Shown: positions 217 through 17,539 of the stretch, piece by piece
Numbering within the stretch: the stretch's first letter is position 1
Layout: every line of letters starts with the position of its first letter
Assembly (NCBI GenBank): GCA_000934665.2
Contig: KZ538462.1
Coordinates: 48,640 to 68,639, forward strand
Direction: 5' to 3'
DNA from: Catajapyx aquilonaris
Taxonomy: Eukaryota
DNA: 20,000 nucleotides
The notes under the pieces: generated by a model
Databases searched by the model: none
What the model was told of the DNA's origin: nothing
Seen by the model: only the letters and a program-made list of their open reading frames with translations
Made by a program: the position numbers and the translations under genes

Positions 217-965
217 TCACATGTGCACAGTTGCAGCTACACATGACCCGCTACCATGTTGCAAATGCACTTGCAAGTATGACCTTCGTGAGAAACATCG
301 CTTGCATGTGGAGCACTGGTACTTCTTCAGGTGTTCCTTGTTGTAATGACGGGTCACAGATGTTGGAAACTTGAAGCTCTTACAACACAGCTTGCAGAAG
401 TAGAGGCGTTCTGAGGTTGACCCACCCCAATCTTTGGGATCAGGGTTATTTTGCCCCGGCCCTGCCCCAGGCCCACCCTGGGACGGACGCTCAAGGTAGC
501 CTATGTAACTCTCACCGTGAAGAGGTGGGCGGCCACGAGGCTTTGGGTTGGGATTAGTTGGCCCGGGGAAGGACTGAGGCAAAAAGATACGCGGTGGCGC
601 AACATGAGTCTTTGGTATGTTCGGAACAGGGGCACCGAAGCCGTCACTTGTGGTCAAGTTCAATCCTGCATTGGATACGATGCTTGGGGCTGCACTTAGG
701 GCAGAATTAACTGCACTGTTCAAGACACCGGCAGGGCTGGAATTACTGGCAGAGATGGAACTAGTGCTTATGTTTGGGAAGACATTTTGCATCAAATGGC
801 TTGACTTGGCTGGCGATGTCAGCTCTATGACCGATCCCTGGCTGCTGGTTTCTTCCTCTTCTCCCATTTCCTCCTCTCCCTCCCTACCCTCCTCTTCCTC
901 CTCGACATCTTCAACTTTGATCAGGTGGCGTTCGTCCTCAGGATCCTCATCCTGAGCACCAATGC
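217..965 (-). CDS. alternative terminal exon 4: acidic tract, AT-hook, two zinc fingers (not FruA/B/C-like)
   Basis: Acceptor TTCCTCTTCCTCCCCGCAG|GC, phase 1, giving 249 open codons: GIGAQDEDPEDERHLIKVEDVEEEE...KPRGRPP...CKLC-x12-H-x4-H...CSTC-x12-H. Isoform about 563 aa if joined to the common exons. Confidence 0.8.
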
Positions 966-2869: not shown

Positions 2870-4077
2870 CGTGTACTGTATGGAGAGAAGGTACTGTAAA
2901 CATTTAATCAGTCTTAAACACTGTAATAGGTCGTAACATCATCCACAATGGAGACCTGCTCATCCAGAGTGAGATGAAGATCAAAAGAGGGAAAATACAT
3001 TTTTTAAACAACAAGATACACAGTAGGACCTTCACCAAACAAGAACCTGTCCTAGTGCCGAGATTTTAAAGCGCCTCACTGGGAGAAAGAAAAACGCTCG
3101 ACATATCGACATATCGATAGGCTCTTTACAGAAGAAAATGGCGGTGGTTAACATGTGTCACACTCTGAGCTCTATGTACAGTATGACTTTTTGTGCAGTT
3201 CTTTCAAAGCATTTTCAGGGCAATACCCTGGATTCAAAAGCACCCTGGAACTTGTATTATGGCTGGACTTTCTAAGTCCTTGTGAGTTTGATTTAGTTTG
3301 TGTGTGCCTCACTGATTCACATGGTCACCTATCAATTCCTAACAATTCCTGACAATTACTGCCATGGAACTGCTTTGGTTTGATGAGAACTACCAGTATG
3401 AATTTTTCTAACAACACAATTATCTGACTTCCATGGCTAGTTCACGAACACAGGACAACTACCTTGGTCATCCCAACTTGTCAATGTGAATTAAAGTGCC
3501 ACTTCACAGCCAATTATGGTGACTATTGCATGGACTAGCAATCGAAAAGAAAATATTCATTCAAAACCAATTTTACAACACTAAGAAAAAGAAGCTCCAA
3601 TTTACACGGGAGGACAAACATGACTCATGTCAATGTGACGTTAAAGTTAACCACATAATTTTTCCGAAACATTTCTGCCAATTTCTAGAGTGGCACATAA
3701 CAACTAGATGACCATTTCTCAACTTTCTTCTGACAACAGACAATCAAATAATCCAGCTGACACAAGACCTTTAGATCCCTCGACCAATTCAAATTCTTAT
3801 TATTTCACACCATACGCTTTTTAAATATGCAGAAGAACCCTGTTATTGAAGGATATAATTTTCAGCACCATAAGTTCCCATCAGAGACAGGTTTCACTGT
3901 ACTTTGGCATTTGAACTGGTTAAAACCTTGAAATGCAATTGGAATTTCAACAACAGACCAGTTAATACACTCAAATTACTACAGCTACAATAATGACATG
4001 GCAAAATACATAGCACTCTGCAGTGGCAGTTTACACGAAGAACTCTTTAGCACGTAACGAAGTGAAGAGAAGCATTC

Positions 4078-4406
4078 TTAGGAAAAAGCCCCCTCCCTGA
4101 CAATATCCCCCAAAGCAGCGTCTGCATCCAGAAACGCCTGCAGGACGGTCTGGTGCAAGAGGCCGCTCCCACCCCCTCTCTCTGGATTGGTGGTTCCAAT
4201 GAGCTCCTGCAGATGCTTGAGCTTGAGATGTGCCCTCAGGGAATCGCTGCGTGTGTAGGTAGCAGGGCACAGGGGACATCGGTGCCTGCCAGGGTTGTGC
4301 ACGTGATAATGGTTCCAGTGGTTGGACACCACTTTGCCACACAGTCTGCATCTGCGCAGGTGAGGATTACTGGCTACCTTTTCAAACATGGCTTTCACCC
4401 GGGGTC
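4078..4406 (-). CDS. fru: alternative terminal zinc-finger exon 3 (FruB-like C2H2 pair)
   Basis: Acceptor GATACTTACAG|GA, phase 1 and in frame. CRLCGKVVSNHWNHYHVHNPGRHRCPLCPATYTRSDSLRAHLKLKH versus recalled Fru CKLCGKVVTHIRNHYHVHFPGRFECPLCRATYTRSDNLRTHCKFKH. Isoform about 423 aa. Confidence 0.88.
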
Positions 4407-7170: not shown

Positions 7171-7418
7171 CTAAGCCGCGTGCTTGCACTTGTAGTGCTG
7201 CTTGAGCGAGTCCCTGCGCTTGAACACCGCGTGACAAATGCTGCATCGGCACATTTCAGGGTTGTGGTAGTTGTAGTGGTGCCAACGGTTGGTCACCTGC
7301 TTGCCGCATATCTGACACGAGAACAACCGTGATGCAGTTTGGACAAAGATGTTATATTTTGATACGCCTGGGGCAAAGGCCGTAAACTCTGGGCCACCGC
7401 CGCAGGCGGGGTATACAC
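7171..7418 (-). CDS. fru: alternative terminal zinc-finger exon 2 (FruA/C-like C2H2 pair)
   Basis: Acceptor TTTTCTTCCCTTGCAG|GT, phase 1 and in frame. CQICGKQVTNRWHHYNYH...CSICHAVFKRRDSLKQHYKCKH; the V[TS]NRWHH motif is characteristic of Fru fingers. Isoform about 396 aa. Confidence 0.87.
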
Positions 7419-10588: not shown

Positions 10589-10881
10589 TCACCACTTGAG
10601 CTCGTCACCCCAACCCATGGCAGTGGCGATCACCCAGCACTTCCCAAACTTCATGTGCTGCTTGAGGTGATCCGGGCGGGTGTAAACCCGGTGGCAAACC
10701 CGGCACTTGAAGTGTCCCGGCGAGTGGTACAGGTAATGGTTGCGCTTGTTCTTTACCACCTTGTTACACAGCCTACACCGCTGGGCCGTGGGAGACACCC
10801 TCTCAAACATGTCTTTGTAGCTTGTCACCACGCCCGTGCCACTACCCTCAAAACTCTCCCTGTACCTTCCTATTTCGGCCC
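10589..10881 (-). CDS. fru: alternative terminal zinc-finger exon 1 (divergent FruB-like; C2H2 + C2HC)
   Basis: Acceptor TTTTCTCTCCCTTGCAG|GG, phase 1 and in frame. Encodes MFERVSPTAQR-CRLC-x9-HYLYH-SPGHFK-CRVC-x12-H-MKFGK-C; stop at 10589. Isoform about 411 aa. Confidence 0.85.
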
Positions 10882-12665
10882 CTGCAAGGGAGAGAAAAAG
10901 AGAAAAAAAAATGTGTGTGGAGAAGAGAATATGGATGGGTTTTTTTATAAATAAAATAAATTTTGCTTCTTTTTTTGCTCTTGATGTGCATTATTAATAA
11001 GAAAAAAATATATATATGAATAAGAGAAAAGAGAGAGAGGGAGCCAAGTGTCACCAGAGATTCCACAATAATTGGGTGTAACAGGAAAAAATTTCTTTTG
11101 AAGTGGCAATGAACTGTACATATTAGGGCCAATTCTTATTTACAGAAAAAAAGGTCTTGACAAATTCTCACTACTGGGAAGCACTGCATCTAATATGATC
11201 GATTCTTGGCTGCTTAATGACAACCTCATTATGCACAGCGATTGTTACTAATATGCCTACGAGTCAATCACCAAGGAACATTTTCCCCATTCCCAAAGTC
11301 ACTTCGACTCTAACTACAGGCCATGTTGCAACAGGTGTAAAAGCATGTTGACCTTATCAATTCCATACCTTCAATCTAAACATCATTATCACAGCTTGCA
11401 TCACGATAAGAAAATTTTTGAAACAACAATACCAATATGGTCATAACAATGAGGCCTGCACTGTCCCACTCATTTCCTCAACCTATTACAAACGGTGTCA
11501 GTTTCCGAGCATCCTGAAATTCTTGAAAATGTATGTCGGATATCAAAACATCCTTTTGCTTCTTTCCTACACAATCACGTGAATTCTTCACAGCCGAACT
11601 GCAGATAATAATGACACATGGCGCTAACATGACTGCAAGGCATATTCAACAACTGACTTGAGCCCACGAGATCACTCAAAAAGACTGAGACGATTTTAAA
11701 CAAAATTCAACATCATGTCAATCATTTTGAGGGAATTAATACGTTATCTCACATTCATCCTGAAATCATTCTTGCTACAGCAGCATTGCCTGAAGTTACG
11801 CATTTTAAATTGGGCCTTTCATTTCATGAGCTGAGCATCATAAGCTGAACTTGACCAGTTGTCAAATTAACCCTGCAACATCTTAGTGCCCGTAGTACCT
11901 GATGTCTAATTTTCAGTATTTTCATAATCGGAATTGCCTGTCTGTATGTGCACCAACATGAAAAAGCTGCTCATTCCCTTGTTGCAACTTCTTTCATCGA
12001 CACTAAATTTTCTGGTGAGCAGGTCACGCATTTTCAACTGAAGAGAGCTGTTGCACCGCCCTGACCAAAAAATTATCTGCTCTTATTGAGTTTCCGCGGA
12101 AAACAATACTACTACATCACTAGGTTTGCCTAATTCGCAACAATACCAACAACAGTCAAAAACAAGTACACCCTCCCGACCCCAGCAATGTCCTCCCAAC
12201 AATACCAATATCAACATACTACAAAAAAAAACAGTGCGGAGCTAGGGGAAAGGATGGGCAGTGGACGGGAGAAAACTGAAGAAACCCAGGGACACTAACA
12301 CAAAACACAAACAATTTTTGAAAAACAAAGACCACTCAACACACATCCACAATTTTTAATGCAGCTTTACCTCAATTAAAAATTGCCCTACCCTTCCGAG
12401 TAGATTTACATGAATTACTTATCGAATTTCACATATTTTGATGCTTATCCCGATCAACTGTGAACACGATTGACAAAATTATTAAACAAAGCTCCTCTCC
12501 CAACCCTTTTGCCTTCCGTAAAAAACTGAATCACAAACTGGGGCCTTTGCGTGGTCTTTAGTACACATGGTAAGGTATAAGAGATGAAATAAAACCAAGT
12601 GGAAAAGAGAGAGAAAGAGAGAGATATTAAAAATAGGGATCGATAACAAACGAATCGTCTCTTAC

Positions 12666-12819
12666 CTTCTGGGAGGTCCAAGTGTTCCTGAGTTGCTGAC
12701 GTTCCTTGTTCAGAGTCTGAGTGGTGCCCCCCTCCCCCGCCACCGCCTCCCCCTCCCCCGGCGGATGAGACAGACATCTGCGATTGGTCCAATGAGCCAC
12801 TGAGCGCAAGAGATTCCTC
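12666..12819 (-). CDS. fru: fru-like common coding exon 3 (poly-Gly linker), ends in the shared phase-1 donor
   Basis: Follows a 73-nt intron; acceptor TAATTACAG|GAG; EESLALSGSLDQSQMSVSSAG11HHSDSEQ...LPE; donor GAAG|GTAAGA; 154 nt, phase 1. Confidence 0.85.
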
Positions 12820-12892: not shown

Positions 12893-13213
12893 GTTGGGCG
12901 GGTCAATTCCAAATGTGTCCCTGTACTCTTGGGCCCCAATTTGACCCAGGTCCTCCTCCTCCTTCACGATGGAATCTGGGGAAAGATTGATGGCCTCTGC
13001 GTGATGACCACTCCCGGTTCCCAAGTCGGGGAGCTTGCAGTCAGGCGAGTAAGAGGCGGAGGGATTGATCCCGCCGTCAGCGATGTTTGCATTGCCGTTG
13101 TTCGTGGTGGAAGCAGTGGTGGTCGTGGGTTGGGAGGTCACCGTCGAGGAGGAAGACGTCGATGCAGGCTGAGGATGATCAGGTTTTGATCGGCCCTGGT
13201 TTTGTCCCACGTA
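12893..13213 (-). CDS. fru: fru-like common coding exon 2 (S/T-rich linker)
   Basis: Acceptor CAACTTTCAG|TAC, donor AAC|GTGAGT; 321 nt, phase 0-0, in frame with exon 1 (YVGQNQGRS...IVKEEED...DPPN). Confidence 0.85.
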
Positions 13214-13422: not shown

Positions 13423-13890
13423 CTGTGGAGAGTTCCCGGATGGACATCTCCTCCTCTTCTTTTCAGGTGGCGGTGGAGGGCAGTCAGACACAGCAGAACC
13501 TGCGTTCCCGCCTTTCCCTCCACCCGCGTCCACTCCCGTGGAGGTCTCGGCAAGCCCCCGAATGCGCAGTACCTCTGCGGTCCTGAGGAAGTCGCTGAGC
13601 ATAGTCTGAGAGACATTGACCTCGCCGCGGTACATGAACTGGAGCAGCGCCTTCATCTCGTCCCTCCGAATGTCCCTCAGGAAGATGATTGGGTGGGGAT
13701 GGACGTTCTGAAGCAGCATGGCCTCGAAGTATGGGGAGCAGGCGGAAAGGACCGTCTGGTGAGCCTTGAAAGTGTGGCCGTCGCAGGCCAGTGTCACGTC
13801 CACCAGCACCTCTCGCTGGAGGAGCGACTCAAGCACGTCTGTTAGGTTGGCCCGGTGGTTATTCCACCGCAGGCAGAACTGCTGCTCCAT
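13423..13890 (-). CDS. fru: fruitless-like BTB-ZF transcription factor, common coding exon 1 (ttk-type BTB/POZ domain)
   Basis: ATG at 13890 in CAAACCATGG context. [83 protein letters not shown] closely follows the recalled Fru BTB ([51 protein letters not shown]). Ends at donor CAG|GTGAGA, phase 0, 156 codons. Includes basic NLS-like PEKKRRR. Confidence 0.9.
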
Positions 13891-13950
13891 GGTTTGGTCA
13901 GTCAATGTACTTTCGTTTCTCGGGGGCGTCTTCAGTGTATTACAGCACTT

Positions 13951-13965
13951 TCAGGCAGTGAGCAT
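13951..13965 (-). promoter_or_regulatory. 4-codon uORF (MLTA*) at the start of the BTB exon 5' UTR
   Basis: After acceptor CTCCTTGCAG| (exon start 13966): A ATG CTC ACT GCC TGA, in frame with and starting 75 nt upstream of the main ATG. Confidence 0.55.
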
Positions 13966-15367
13966 TCTGCAAGGAGATTCCAAAACAATCTTTATTATGT
14001 GTATATAACGAAAGGCAAAGTTTGCCCATTTGTTTGTCCATGTTTTAGTTTCTACGGTATCAACAATGACTGATTGTTGCTGATTACATTACCACATACA
14101 CATAATTATGCGTCAACTTGGGAGGTACTGGACATGCGTGCATTTCAACCCATTCTTCAAGTGCAAATATAATGATATGGATAAGACATTCCAACATGTC
14201 ATGAGCCAGGTTTTGTGCCAAAATCATAAGCGCTGCAGGTGCATTTGGCAACCCTCCCCATGGAACAGCGCCATTCAGATTCTTCTGATAAGCCTCACGT
14301 CAACTACTTTGTACGAGGTGAAACTAATGTGAGATCAACATTTATTTTAGCCCACTCGAGATGACATGCCTCTTCACAACTTGTTAAACACATCAGAATT
14401 CAGACAATTAAATCCAAGCGACCCGACTCATTGTTGAGAAGAAACAGTAGACTCGGGATATAACAAACTTCAAGGAACCGTGGCTATCAGTATCTTATAA
14501 CTGAGGTTTCCTGTATCCAAATTTCCAATACACGAAGTTTACTGCCTGCCACATGCCTACCATGCACACTCCTGCATTCAGATTACAGAAACTGTCCATG
14601 AAAATGAAAAATTAGCTCTCCAGTGAATTATGCGGGACCACAAGGATTTATAATTTTCATCTGCCATCCCCTCCTTGCCAAATAAACCAGAAAAAAGAAT
14701 TTTGACCTTTTCGGCAAGTGTAGAGGGGGCGACAAGGCAATTTTCGGTTTCATGCTGAGTAGTATACAAGCAGCACATTTTTCCACAGAGGGAAAGCTTT
14801 ACAAAGCTGACCCACAGAGGGGCCAAGAAATAGTCTGTTACAGCCAAAGTGAAAATGAGTCTGTTATATCAGGAGTAAAATACGCACGGCCTTATGGCGT
14901 GACCGTCCTTTTGAGCCTGGTAGTCAGTTCAGATATCTCGCACACTCAAAAATGCTCAGTGAACACTCCAGCTCTTTCAGACTTCCTGCCTCATGAACCT
15001 GGGCACTAATAAGCCATCCGACTAAAAATAGTGCGCATGCGATTGTATTCACTCATGTAGGCTACGCTGAGTGCGCAGGAATGCCGAGAGCCCTTTCGCA
15101 TATCTAACATTACACACAAAAATGCAAGAATCTAATCTGACATTCTTCAACCCACGAGCGTATCAGTGCGGAAGATTCCTACACCATCCTGCGAGTGTGT
15201 AAACATGTTTTTCCAAAAAGGCGCCTTGCCCACAAATATTGTTATGTTGCTGGTCATGTCGTACACACGTATTGTCGACATAAACGCGACTCATCAGTGC
15301 GCCCAACCGGATATGCATACCACTGTACCCAACAGGGCATGCGCACCGGCGTACCCAACTCTTACCT

Positions 15368-15422
15368 CTACGTACACCCACTACGTACACCCACTACGTA
15401 CACCCACTACGTACACACTACG
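15368..15422. repeat. 13-bp tandem repeat, about 4 copies
   Basis: (CTACGTACACCCA)x3 + CTACGTACACA + CTACG. Confidence 0.9.
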
Positions 15423-15783
15423 GGTAAGTGCCTTGACCCCACTCCCCCAATCCCCCTCCCTTTTCTCTGAAACCCCGACCTGGATATCTCCTGGGCAGTG
15501 GCTCGAGCAATGTGGGTCACAGGAAACGGGCCCTTTTCACCCACCCACCCACCATTTCGCGAAAAAAAAAAAAAAAGTACATCCCCCACCCCCACCCCCT
15601 TCCCCCCTCTACCCTCAACCCAAGGGTACCCTCCAAACCCGCGCGACACCCCCCCACTTTTTCCCTCCTGATGTTCCTCCCCCATCCTTTGGAGGGCCTG
15701 GATTCGACTCGGGGGCGGACCAGGGGCCTGCCTGGAGCTAGTTGGGATGAGTGGAAGGCGGGTAGGGAGAGCACGAGACTCAC

Positions 15784-15945
15784 CGTGGGGGTGAATTTCC
15801 GCCACTCGCCAAATAAAAACCGCACCCGGAACACAAAGAAATCCAGGGCACAACTCCGAACAATCAACACTGGGACGCCTCCACTCGAAGGGTTCGCGGA
15901 TGGGGACTACTACCCGTGAAGAAGGACATGGCAATGTCCGCTGAA
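15784..15945 (-). other. candidate non-coding 5' exon (5' boundary approximate)
   Basis: Strong donor CACG|GTGAGT at 15784/15783 within a GC/CpG-rich block upstream of the BTB exon. Confidence 0.4.
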
Positions 15946-17057
15946 CACAAATCGGGAGTGACTTCCGAGTAACGCGCATGGCCTGCAGATGCATTGTGGC
16001 ACGTACCATTGTGTCCGTAAGTACGTACATTTTGAGCCGTACCGTACTCGCTGCATGGGATGGCACAGGGAGTGGGCGGCCGAATCCAGCAGGAATCCAC
16101 TGGGCGTCCCAATGTTGACGGGTGTAAATCAGGGGCAAGCGGTCACGTGACGGTAGTTTTTTTTTTTACTGTTTTGTAGCGTCGAGTGATCCGCCGCATT
16201 CATTGCAGCGGCGCTTTTAACCACCCTCCTTTGCTTGTATGCCATTCATTTTATTGCACGGAAAGTATACGGTACCGTCACCATGAGATGGGGGTTGCAT
16301 GTGCCGCAGGATGAACATGTCAATCGAGGAGGAATTGTCATCACAGTAGGGTATTAATAATATAGATATTGGACTATATTTTTATTGGTATTGTAGTGCA
16401 GAGGCGGTTAAATATCATTATTAGCCAGTCTTAACATTCAGCAGGCAGGCTCTTTCGCAAGTTGTAGACATAGGCGTCGTCTGTTGGCAATTGCATCCTG
16501 TAATAAGGCACAATTTTGGTTTATTTTGTGATGCGCATGAATAGTAAGCCTATGTTATATCAATAATATTTCACTTATTAGATTACTTGCCTGATGATAT
16601 AGACCTGTGGGAGATAAATACGTTATTTGCATGATGAATAAGTAAGTTATTAATATTGCAAAAAAAAATTTTTTTTTAAATGTGCGCTTACCTCTGCCTG
16701 GCAAGCTTCAAGATATCTTTGCACACGTCACTTAATTTGCCATTAGCATCTGGTTCACACGGATCATGCTTAGAAGCTGTGACAATATACGAAGATTAGC
16801 AAAAGAGAGGGTACCGCATTTTTATAAATGATAATACAAACAAACCATGCTAATTACCTATTGTGAAGCACAGAAATGACATCAACAAAAGAGATAGGGT
16901 GAAATACCTCATTATCGGATGCAGTATGTAGCTATAAAAATAATGCCCTGATACTGTTGTGATTCTCTTAGAAATACACAACTTACTCGTCTAGCAAAAA
17001 TGAAGGAAATGTCTACATAACACACAGCCCATTCAACAAGTCAACCGTGTCGTTAAG

Positions 17058-17141
17058 ATATCGACGCCTAAGGATTATATTGTCGTATGTCCACCTTTGG
17101 ACTTATGAACATACGACAATATAATCCTTAGGCGTCGATAT
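17058..17141. repeat. perfect 33-bp inverted repeat (probable tiny MITE or foldback)
   Basis: ATATCGACGCCTAAGGATTATATTGTCGTATGT (17058-17090), an 18-nt spacer, then its reverse complement (17109-17141). Confidence 0.8.
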
Positions 17142-17266
17142 ATCATATCTGTCGATGACTGCGACGTAACCTGAACACAATAGAGAATCTAGAAGAGAAA
17201 CAGAATGAATATATTCATTGGCTAGCTATTTAAGAAATGTGCATTGTGAGTAGACCTAAACGTATA

Positions 17267-17539
17267 CAGGGTGTTAATCCTAAGCGTGTCACCAGAAAAG
17301 GTGGTGGTAGAGGGCGCAGGTGTGAGCATTTTTGCATAAGGAACTAGGGGTCGGAAACGCACCGTCACCGAGTTACGCCCCTTTCAAGTTTCCGGCAGGC
17401 AGTGTGCAAGAGGCGGGCGGCACGCGGTGGAGTGATTCGGTGAGGGTGCATTTCCTACCCCTAGTTCCTTGCAAAAATGCTCACACCTGCGCCCTCTACC
17501 ACCACCTTTTCTGGTGACACCCTTAGGATTAACGCCCGG
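17267..17539. mobile_element. Tc1/mariner-type MITE (273 bp) with ~103-bp inverted arms
   Basis: TA|CAGGGTGTTAATCCTAAG...CTTAGGATTAACGCCCGG|TA; arms ~17267-17371 and ~17437-17539 are near-perfect reverse complements. Confidence 0.85.

Follow-up and report, generated by a model that had tools for sequence, protein, structure and literature searches.

Exon c4 of Catajapyx aquilonaris is probably an old, conserved alternative last exon of fruitless (fru), spliced from the common donor at 12666 and yielding an isoform that ends in a C2H2 plus a C2HC zinc finger. It lies within a 20,000-nucleotide stretch of contig KZ538462.1, hereafter the window. The initial annotation had taken c4 for a lineage-specific or captured exon, a reading contradicted by an ungapped match of its finger pair to a zinc finger module of hemimetabolous insects that gene models join to Fru. 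The exon is less exotic and older than was first held, it belongs to a known kind of system, and it is better read as a long-standing fru isoform than as a recent graft. Coordinates of all features are collected in Table 1.

Table 1. Features of the Catajapyx fruitless locus (window positions, except for c5)
Feature	Coordinates	Strand	Remarks
5' non-coding exon	15784..15842	-	Exact at the left end, at least this long at the right; the shorter side of joint 13966-15784 has 58 letters
BTB exon	13423..13966	-	ATG at 13890; Fru-type BTB, Pfam BTB E 4e-25
Common connector exon	12893..13213	-	Joints in the RNA-like run
Last common exon	12666..12819	-	Phase-1 donor used by the cassettes; joints in the RNA-like run
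Alternative last exon c1	10589..10881	-	x9 finger pair; 97 aa; groups with Anabrus X5, Zootermopsis X2, and mayfly isoforms
Alternative last exon c2	7171..7418	-	x9 finger pair, presumably FruA/B-like; 82 aa; joined to 12666 in RNA
Alternative last exon c3	4078..4406	-	x9 finger pair, presumably FruC/F-like; 109 aa
Alternative last exon c4	217..965	-	Phase-1 acceptor at 965; stop 217-219
IKVE and acidic tract, beginning of c4	850..921	-	IKVE 921-910; acidic tract 912-850
AT-hook-like KPRGRPP	523..543	-	Near the position of the K/R basic patch in insect homologs, where the alignment is unreliable
Zinc finger 1, C2H2	331..396	-	C-x2-C-x12-H-x4-H; helix -1/2/3/6 = F/T/S/R
Zinc finger 2, C2HC	241..315	-	C-x2-C-x12-H-x7-C; helix -1/2/3/6 = R/S/Y/V
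Fifth cassette c5	L011 8729-8440	-	1.2 kb beyond the left end of the window; 96 aa, phase-1 acceptor, x12 first finger

The fruitless locus and its cassette array

The BTB domain is 73-80% identical to 21 Fru BTBs, with 80% identity to cricket Fruitless A1, C/F, D, and H2, and the genome's next most similar BTB reaches 58%. A 36-row tree places it within the Fru clade with support of 100/99 and leaves outside 12 paralogs from its own genome, the best-scoring of 130 BTB matches there; its pairing with springtail Fru is weak (86/51) and assigns the animal to the non-winged hexapods only tentatively at best. Judged by sequence, the gene is the fruitless ortholog, and the fru-like BTB gene first described is borne out both by this placement and by an array of cassettes homologous to Fru exons.

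RNA evidence comes from a single public run of unknown kind, spliced once aligned, with joints at 15784-13966, 13423-13213, 12893-12819, and 12666-7418. Because of the last of these, donor 12666 demonstrably feeds at least c2. The run covers 157-866 of the c4 region at a depth of 3-4, and nothing is joined at 965 in this one run. Since unspliced pieces (10742-11161) occur in it as well, the thin c4 cover may be nascent RNA or DNA and is weak evidence; uncovered parts (c3, 2002-2668) carry no evidential weight. At 3014 one contig of the run breaks off, its last 113 letters unmatched and no splice acceptor present, which probably reflects an insertion difference or a repeat.

Five cassettes make up the array, all in phase 1 and each matching insect fru models. 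The fifth, c5, is the one extra cassette found when the contig was examined to 48.6 kb past the left end of the window, where unrelated genes follow it; fru models of Periplaneta (X3) and Gryllus longicercus match it at 42-48% identity. Exon c4 has c3 on one side and c5 on the other, and each of these two has homologs among the annotated fru exons of insects. The labels of c2 and c3 in Table 1 are provisional and follow database names only in part. Four cassettes had been counted, with c4 alone credited with a canonical finger; the finger stands, while count and uniqueness do not, c5 also being of the x12 type. The description of c4 as atypical holds, its 249 aa comparing with 82-109 aa for the other three cassettes of the window, all of which have x9 first fingers.

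The 249 codons of c4, counting the split Gly, lie in an open frame that spans 217-1008 of the minus strand. Its acceptor at 965, with 16 of 17 pyrimidines, is the best among the 17 AG sites between 1076 and 900 and has the same phase as donor 12666. By arithmetic from the exon ends, the c4 isoform would be 563 aa long.

As described in the available sections of PMC3632534 and PMC3572092, fruitless of Drosophila, Musca, and Aedes combines a BTB common region with mutually exclusive 3' finger exons, ZnF-A/B/C/D. Catajapyx fru shares the BTB common region and the alternative 3' finger exons; c4 differs from the dipteran ZnF exons in being neither an x9-type pair nor of the FruD (PF25431) type. 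We found no FruD-type exon on the contig, none of 16 FruD-type tails matching it, and no Pfam match in c4. A FruD-type exon is common in insect fru models, yet absent from this contig. Two PF25431 matches lie on other contigs; on one of these (C735) the match follows a different BTB exon, 2-4 kb downstream and in the same orientation.

A distal P1 promoter and a Tra-regulated sex-specific exon are holometabolan traits of fru. No match to a Tra/Tra2 13-mer consensus was found on the minus strand of the window. This absence, to be expected in basal lineages, is in line with the proposal, made in the available part of a preprint (bioRxiv 10.1101/2024.09.25.614005), that basal fru is not sex-specifically spliced.

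The 5' exon of fru is only 1.8 kb from the BTB exon, and the contig ends 4 kb further on, together with the window. Just upstream of the 5' exon (region 15784-17200) is a further spliced unit on the minus strand, with a joint at 16776-16858. The locus appears compact and leaves a distal promoter little space on the contig. Palindromic elements with long inverted arms, recognized by eye at 1349-1518, 1820-1930, and 17263-17520, within the intron preceding c4 and ahead of the gene, are likely to be small non-autonomous transposons. Beyond the array lie an opposite-strand RING/zinc finger gene (L011:5127-6199, plus strand), which we take to resemble Rad18 and which has no firm Pfam match, and a cadherin gene (L013). 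Elsewhere, L004 (G000:C2297) holds a cluster of four short cassettes with two fingers each, all on the same strand and within 2 kb, a probable array of alternative exons.

The finger pair of c4 and its insect relatives

A word search with c4 among long proteins returned none of 28 candidates at E <= 0.001, a blank that is misleading because c4 shares too few exact words with its family. Scanning cluster representatives with c4 returned mostly poly-finger proteins, and five of the best 150 match in one stretch at 44-52% identity, aligning with the c4 finger pair without gaps; thrips, cockroach, and louse are among them. A search with one family member then gave 51 proteins among 52 candidates, 201-349 aa in length. 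All 16 species-named members are hemimetabolous neopterans (crickets, stick insects, cockroaches, lice, thrips, and bugs), and none of the 16 is holometabolous or palaeopteran; this insect range is a lower bound, as the search needs exact shared words and would miss relatives that have diverged as far as c4.

Across the 52 residues from first to last Cys, aligned without gaps, c4 shows 27-31 identities to the 101 family entries compared (of 102, one lacking the anchoring word; many are near-duplicates), and at most 18 to any other sequence in the comparison set. Against a profile derived solely from 28 insect sequences, c4 reaches 79.9 bits; the runner-up among the 283 sequences tested reaches 33.6, and c5 has 23.0. 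When a family member was searched against the Catajapyx genome, c4 was the best of four matches (E 3.5e-14 vs 6.9e-10), a uniqueness that rests on single-protein searches with 150 candidates scored in each. No other member of the family is as divergent as c4. A 42-row tree of the fingers, its supports rough with only 64 columns and the bootstrap not settled, places c4 with Periplaneta X1, Zootermopsis X1, and stand-alone models at 96/99, c5 with x12-type fru isoforms of cricket and cockroach at 92/99, and c1 with the isoforms named in Table 1 at 98/95. On sequence grounds the c4 finger pair is orthologous to the insect module, and the exon is old and conserved. That its fingers do not resemble those of FruA/B/C, as first noticed, is confirmed by their x12/x4 spacing, against C-x2-C-x9-H-x3-H, and by their position outside the x9 group in the tree.

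These comparisons bear directly on the capture of c4 from a poly-finger gene or a mobile element and its grafting onto fru within this lineage. Such an origin would account for the unusual length, for a linker that lacks detectable homology and alone, against 101 of 101 homologs, has RGRP ahead of the fingers, and for the blank word search. It is nonetheless very hard to credit: the ungapped match stands far from the 18 or fewer identities seen elsewhere and takes in the odd linker and the H-x7-C ending, the insect module has the same phase and linkage to fru, and the genome offers no close donor, the next matches being generic fingers 33-46% identical. Capture is contradicted for the fingers; the linker alone could be a later acquisition.

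In a 45-row alignment all eight presumed zinc ligands are invariant, including the final Cys (Cys241). Also invariant are four helix positions in finger 1 (-1, 2, 3, and 6, with F, T, S, and R) and three in finger 2 (-1, 3, and 6, with R, Y, and V). At the remaining position, 2 in finger 2, c4 has Ser, against Ala in 96 and Ser in 5 of the 101 homologs, so that seven of the eight base-contacting positions in c4 equal the insect majority. The initial annotation had left the irregular second finger as either HLQH or H-x7-C. All 101 homologs have a Cys eight residues after the His, with no intervening His, which excludes HLQH as the ligand pair; by conservation, finger 2 of c4 is settled as C2HC (H-x7-C). 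An AlphaFold model of c4 (mean pLDDT 53.6) contains two beta-beta-alpha units in an otherwise disordered chain, and with pLDDT below 50 at residues 235-248 it is too uncertain to judge the fourth ligand of finger 2. Foldseek with this model gave no match at E <= 0.001, and the ESM Atlas gave only generic C2H2 clusters. In C2H2 fingers, the helix positions determine the DNA site. Because its helix residues are the same, the c4 pair should by these rules read the same site as the insect module.

The same residues weigh on the suggestion that c4 is a decaying relic no longer spliced. Its standing as the most divergent member of its family and the lack of an observed junction fit decay, but a 249-codon open frame, a strong acceptor, the retention of all eight zinc ligands and of seven out of the eight helix residues, and thin RNA-like cover make it highly improbable.

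Joined and stand-alone forms of the module

The link between module and fru in insects is seen most directly in gene models. Zootermopsis XP_021921641 (513 aa) and Periplaneta XP_069699851 (511 aa) have a Fru BTB and connector joined to the module, and a partial Coptotermes model (GFG35613) has the same join; all three (P0338, P0375, P0361) are database predictions that were met only as cluster members, and none of the 51 family cluster representatives has a BTB. At the level of these databases, then, c4 does match a fru exon, in Periplaneta, Zootermopsis, and Coptotermes. Like c4, the fused models combine a Fru common region, phase 1, an exon of about 235 aa, and a C2H2 plus a C2HC finger, and c4 is 52% identical to the Periplaneta exon over 62 residues. 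They differ from c4 in a linker that cannot be aligned, in a K/R-rich patch in place of the RGRP hook, and in having no long acidic run. In the records available they are named "bric-a-brac 2-like", "abrupt-like", or hypothetical, and not as a fru exon type. A Timema model (P0322, 570 aa) considered as a further Fru fusion proved to have no BTB.

Genomic linkage in insects is indirect, coming from gene predictions, accession numbers, and scaffold lengths. The module acceptor on termite contigs is also phase 1, and one such contig (L056) carries a FruB-type exon about 5.6 kb upstream of the module on the same strand; the other 13 of the 14 metagenome loci, most of them short, show no further fru exon. 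Fru X2-X9 (XP_066998961-968) and the module (XP_066998971) have neighboring accessions in Anabrus, as they do in Zootermopsis (KDR18581 vs KDR18585 and 18591). Fru and module lie on scaffolds of equal length in Anabrus, Zootermopsis, and Cryptotermes and of different length in Blattella and Timema podura. In one insect the homologous exon has a short GT-AG intron inside finger 1, before the last His (L061, L062:10001-10982).

Most homologs are annotated as stand-alone genes of 200-260 aa, several with isoforms of their own, and from this it might be argued that c4 is the body of a small BTB-less zinc finger gene lodged inside the fru array, with a promoter or first exon of its own, to which fru splices rarely or never. 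The stand-alone genes (Anabrus "zinc finger protein 878", Cryptotermes "zinc finger protein 732", Pediculus PHUM472670, and the aphid and whitefly LOC genes) have the finger pair and helix residues of c4. Several module models of aphids and whitefly lack a BTB and have a short acidic N-terminus of their own (L058, L059, P0319, P0296), and in one of these, the aphid-like transcript-type contig L058, an in-frame stop precedes the start Met. BTB-less use of the module is plausible in these insects, where the models possibly represent a fru exon released as a gene, and the louse and thrips models likewise suggest a BTB-less form. The missing joint to 965 in the run fits a nested gene as well. In Catajapyx, however, the RNA offers no candidate first exon between 966 and 4078. 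The start Met of many insect models aligns, if weakly, with the Val of IKVE, whereas the first Met of c4 is residue 33. Moreover, whereas the insect genes are annotated as BTB-less with their own start, c4 stands within the fru array behind an acceptor compatible with the fru donor, and three insect models are fused. We therefore regard a nested gene as distinctly unlikely to be the explanation of c4, though such use and splicing from fru may coexist.

That c4 gives a Fru isoform, as the initial annotation proposed, is favored by the phase fit, the array position, and the fused insect models. As an alternative last exon, c4 would operate as follows. The common exons, encoding a BTB dimerization domain and a connector, end at the phase-1 donor 12666, which may be spliced to any of five acceptors. 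Where acceptor 965 is chosen, as phase and position lead us to expect in Catajapyx, a 563-aa Fru ending in the C2H2 plus C2HC pair would result. This protein would dimerize through its BTB, and its fingers would read the major groove with the specificity of the insect module, distinct from that of A/B/C (x9)-type isoforms. The long linker, predicted to be disordered, probably evolves fast, and its RGRP may have replaced an ancestral basic patch, serving at most as a weak aid to minor-groove binding or nuclear import.

If the junction of 12666 with 965 is true, one type of fru exon, its base-contacting residues unchanged, extends beyond neopteran insects, and a set of "stand-alone" insect zinc finger genes are fru exons or derive from one. 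Such an exon would provide a handle on the role of Fru before sex-specific splicing and a test case for an alternative exon becoming a gene. The main interest is evolutionary, in a fru exon with fixed specificity residues that appears in databases mostly as a separate gene. The exon type is unnamed in the available sections of the fru literature consulted (PMC8858584, PMC11050625, PMC3572092, PMC3632534, PMC12054349, PMC11354804, bioRxiv 10.1101/2024.09.25.614005), though cricket fru work (Watanabe 2019) may name it. A fuller history can be sketched, in which fru had a C2H2 plus C2HC exon before winged insects, its DNA-reading residues fixed ever since, and the exon was kept as a Fru isoform in cockroaches and termites, released in BTB-less form in bugs, lice, and thrips, lost in Holometabola, and furnished with a working AT-hook in the present lineage, none of it yet in print; as a whole this history is conjectural and rather unlikely to hold in every part.

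The linker and the AT-hook-like motif

The acidic tract, IKVE, the S/P-rich stretch, KPRGRPP, and finger 1 all lie where the initial annotation placed them, and residues 38-182 of c4 are 16% S, 15% P, and 11% G. For the 175 residues that precede the fingers, homology to the insect exon is not significant, 80 of 500 shuffles reaching an equal score, and only this linker, with its acidic tract and RGRP hook, looks lineage-specific. A SUMO consensus arises in 8.4% of 20,000 shuffles of c4 residues 1-186; because of this, IKVE alone, a putative SUMO site that lies ahead of the fingers in 17 of 101 homologs, is not beyond chance. In the same shuffles RGRP arises in 0.29%, and K/R-x-RGRP, a pattern picked post hoc, in 0.03%. 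The hook pattern occurs in none of the 145 poly-finger proteins from the scan of cluster representatives.

KPRGRPP contains the RGRP core of an AT-hook with one Lys before it and no basic residue after it, PLHG following directly, whereas the HMGA consensus, as given in the available part of PMC11354804, has KK after the core. RGRP is found ahead of the fingers in none of the 101 homologs and anywhere in only two, both from lice (P0272, P0293) and both behind the fingers; insect homologs have instead a K/R-rich patch ahead of the fingers at roughly the distance of the c4 RGRP. Pfam reports no AT-hook in c4, an uninformative result, since it also missed a canonical hook in another protein (P0076). 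Of the AT-hook first proposed, with minor-groove binding to AT-rich DNA, the RGRP is real and peculiar to Catajapyx; hook activity and AT-rich binding appear doubtful because basic residues are lacking after the core.

The BTB family of the vertebrate protein PATZ1 (ZBTB19) is unrelated to the Fru BTB. PATZ1 has a BTB, an AT-hook, and C2H2 fingers, according to the available text of PMC11354804, the same domain order as in the predicted c4 isoform, and the combination of BTB, hook, and fingers is a known layout. The PATZ1 hook is constitutive, unlike the hook-like motif of c4, which is encoded in a probable alternative exon. Because one ChIP study, cited in the part of PMC11354804 available, found no AT-rich sites for PATZ1, the presence of a hook is no guarantee of AT-rich binding. 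Hooks are seen repeatedly among models related to Fru, the canonical one in P0076 belonging to a fingerless firefly Fru model.
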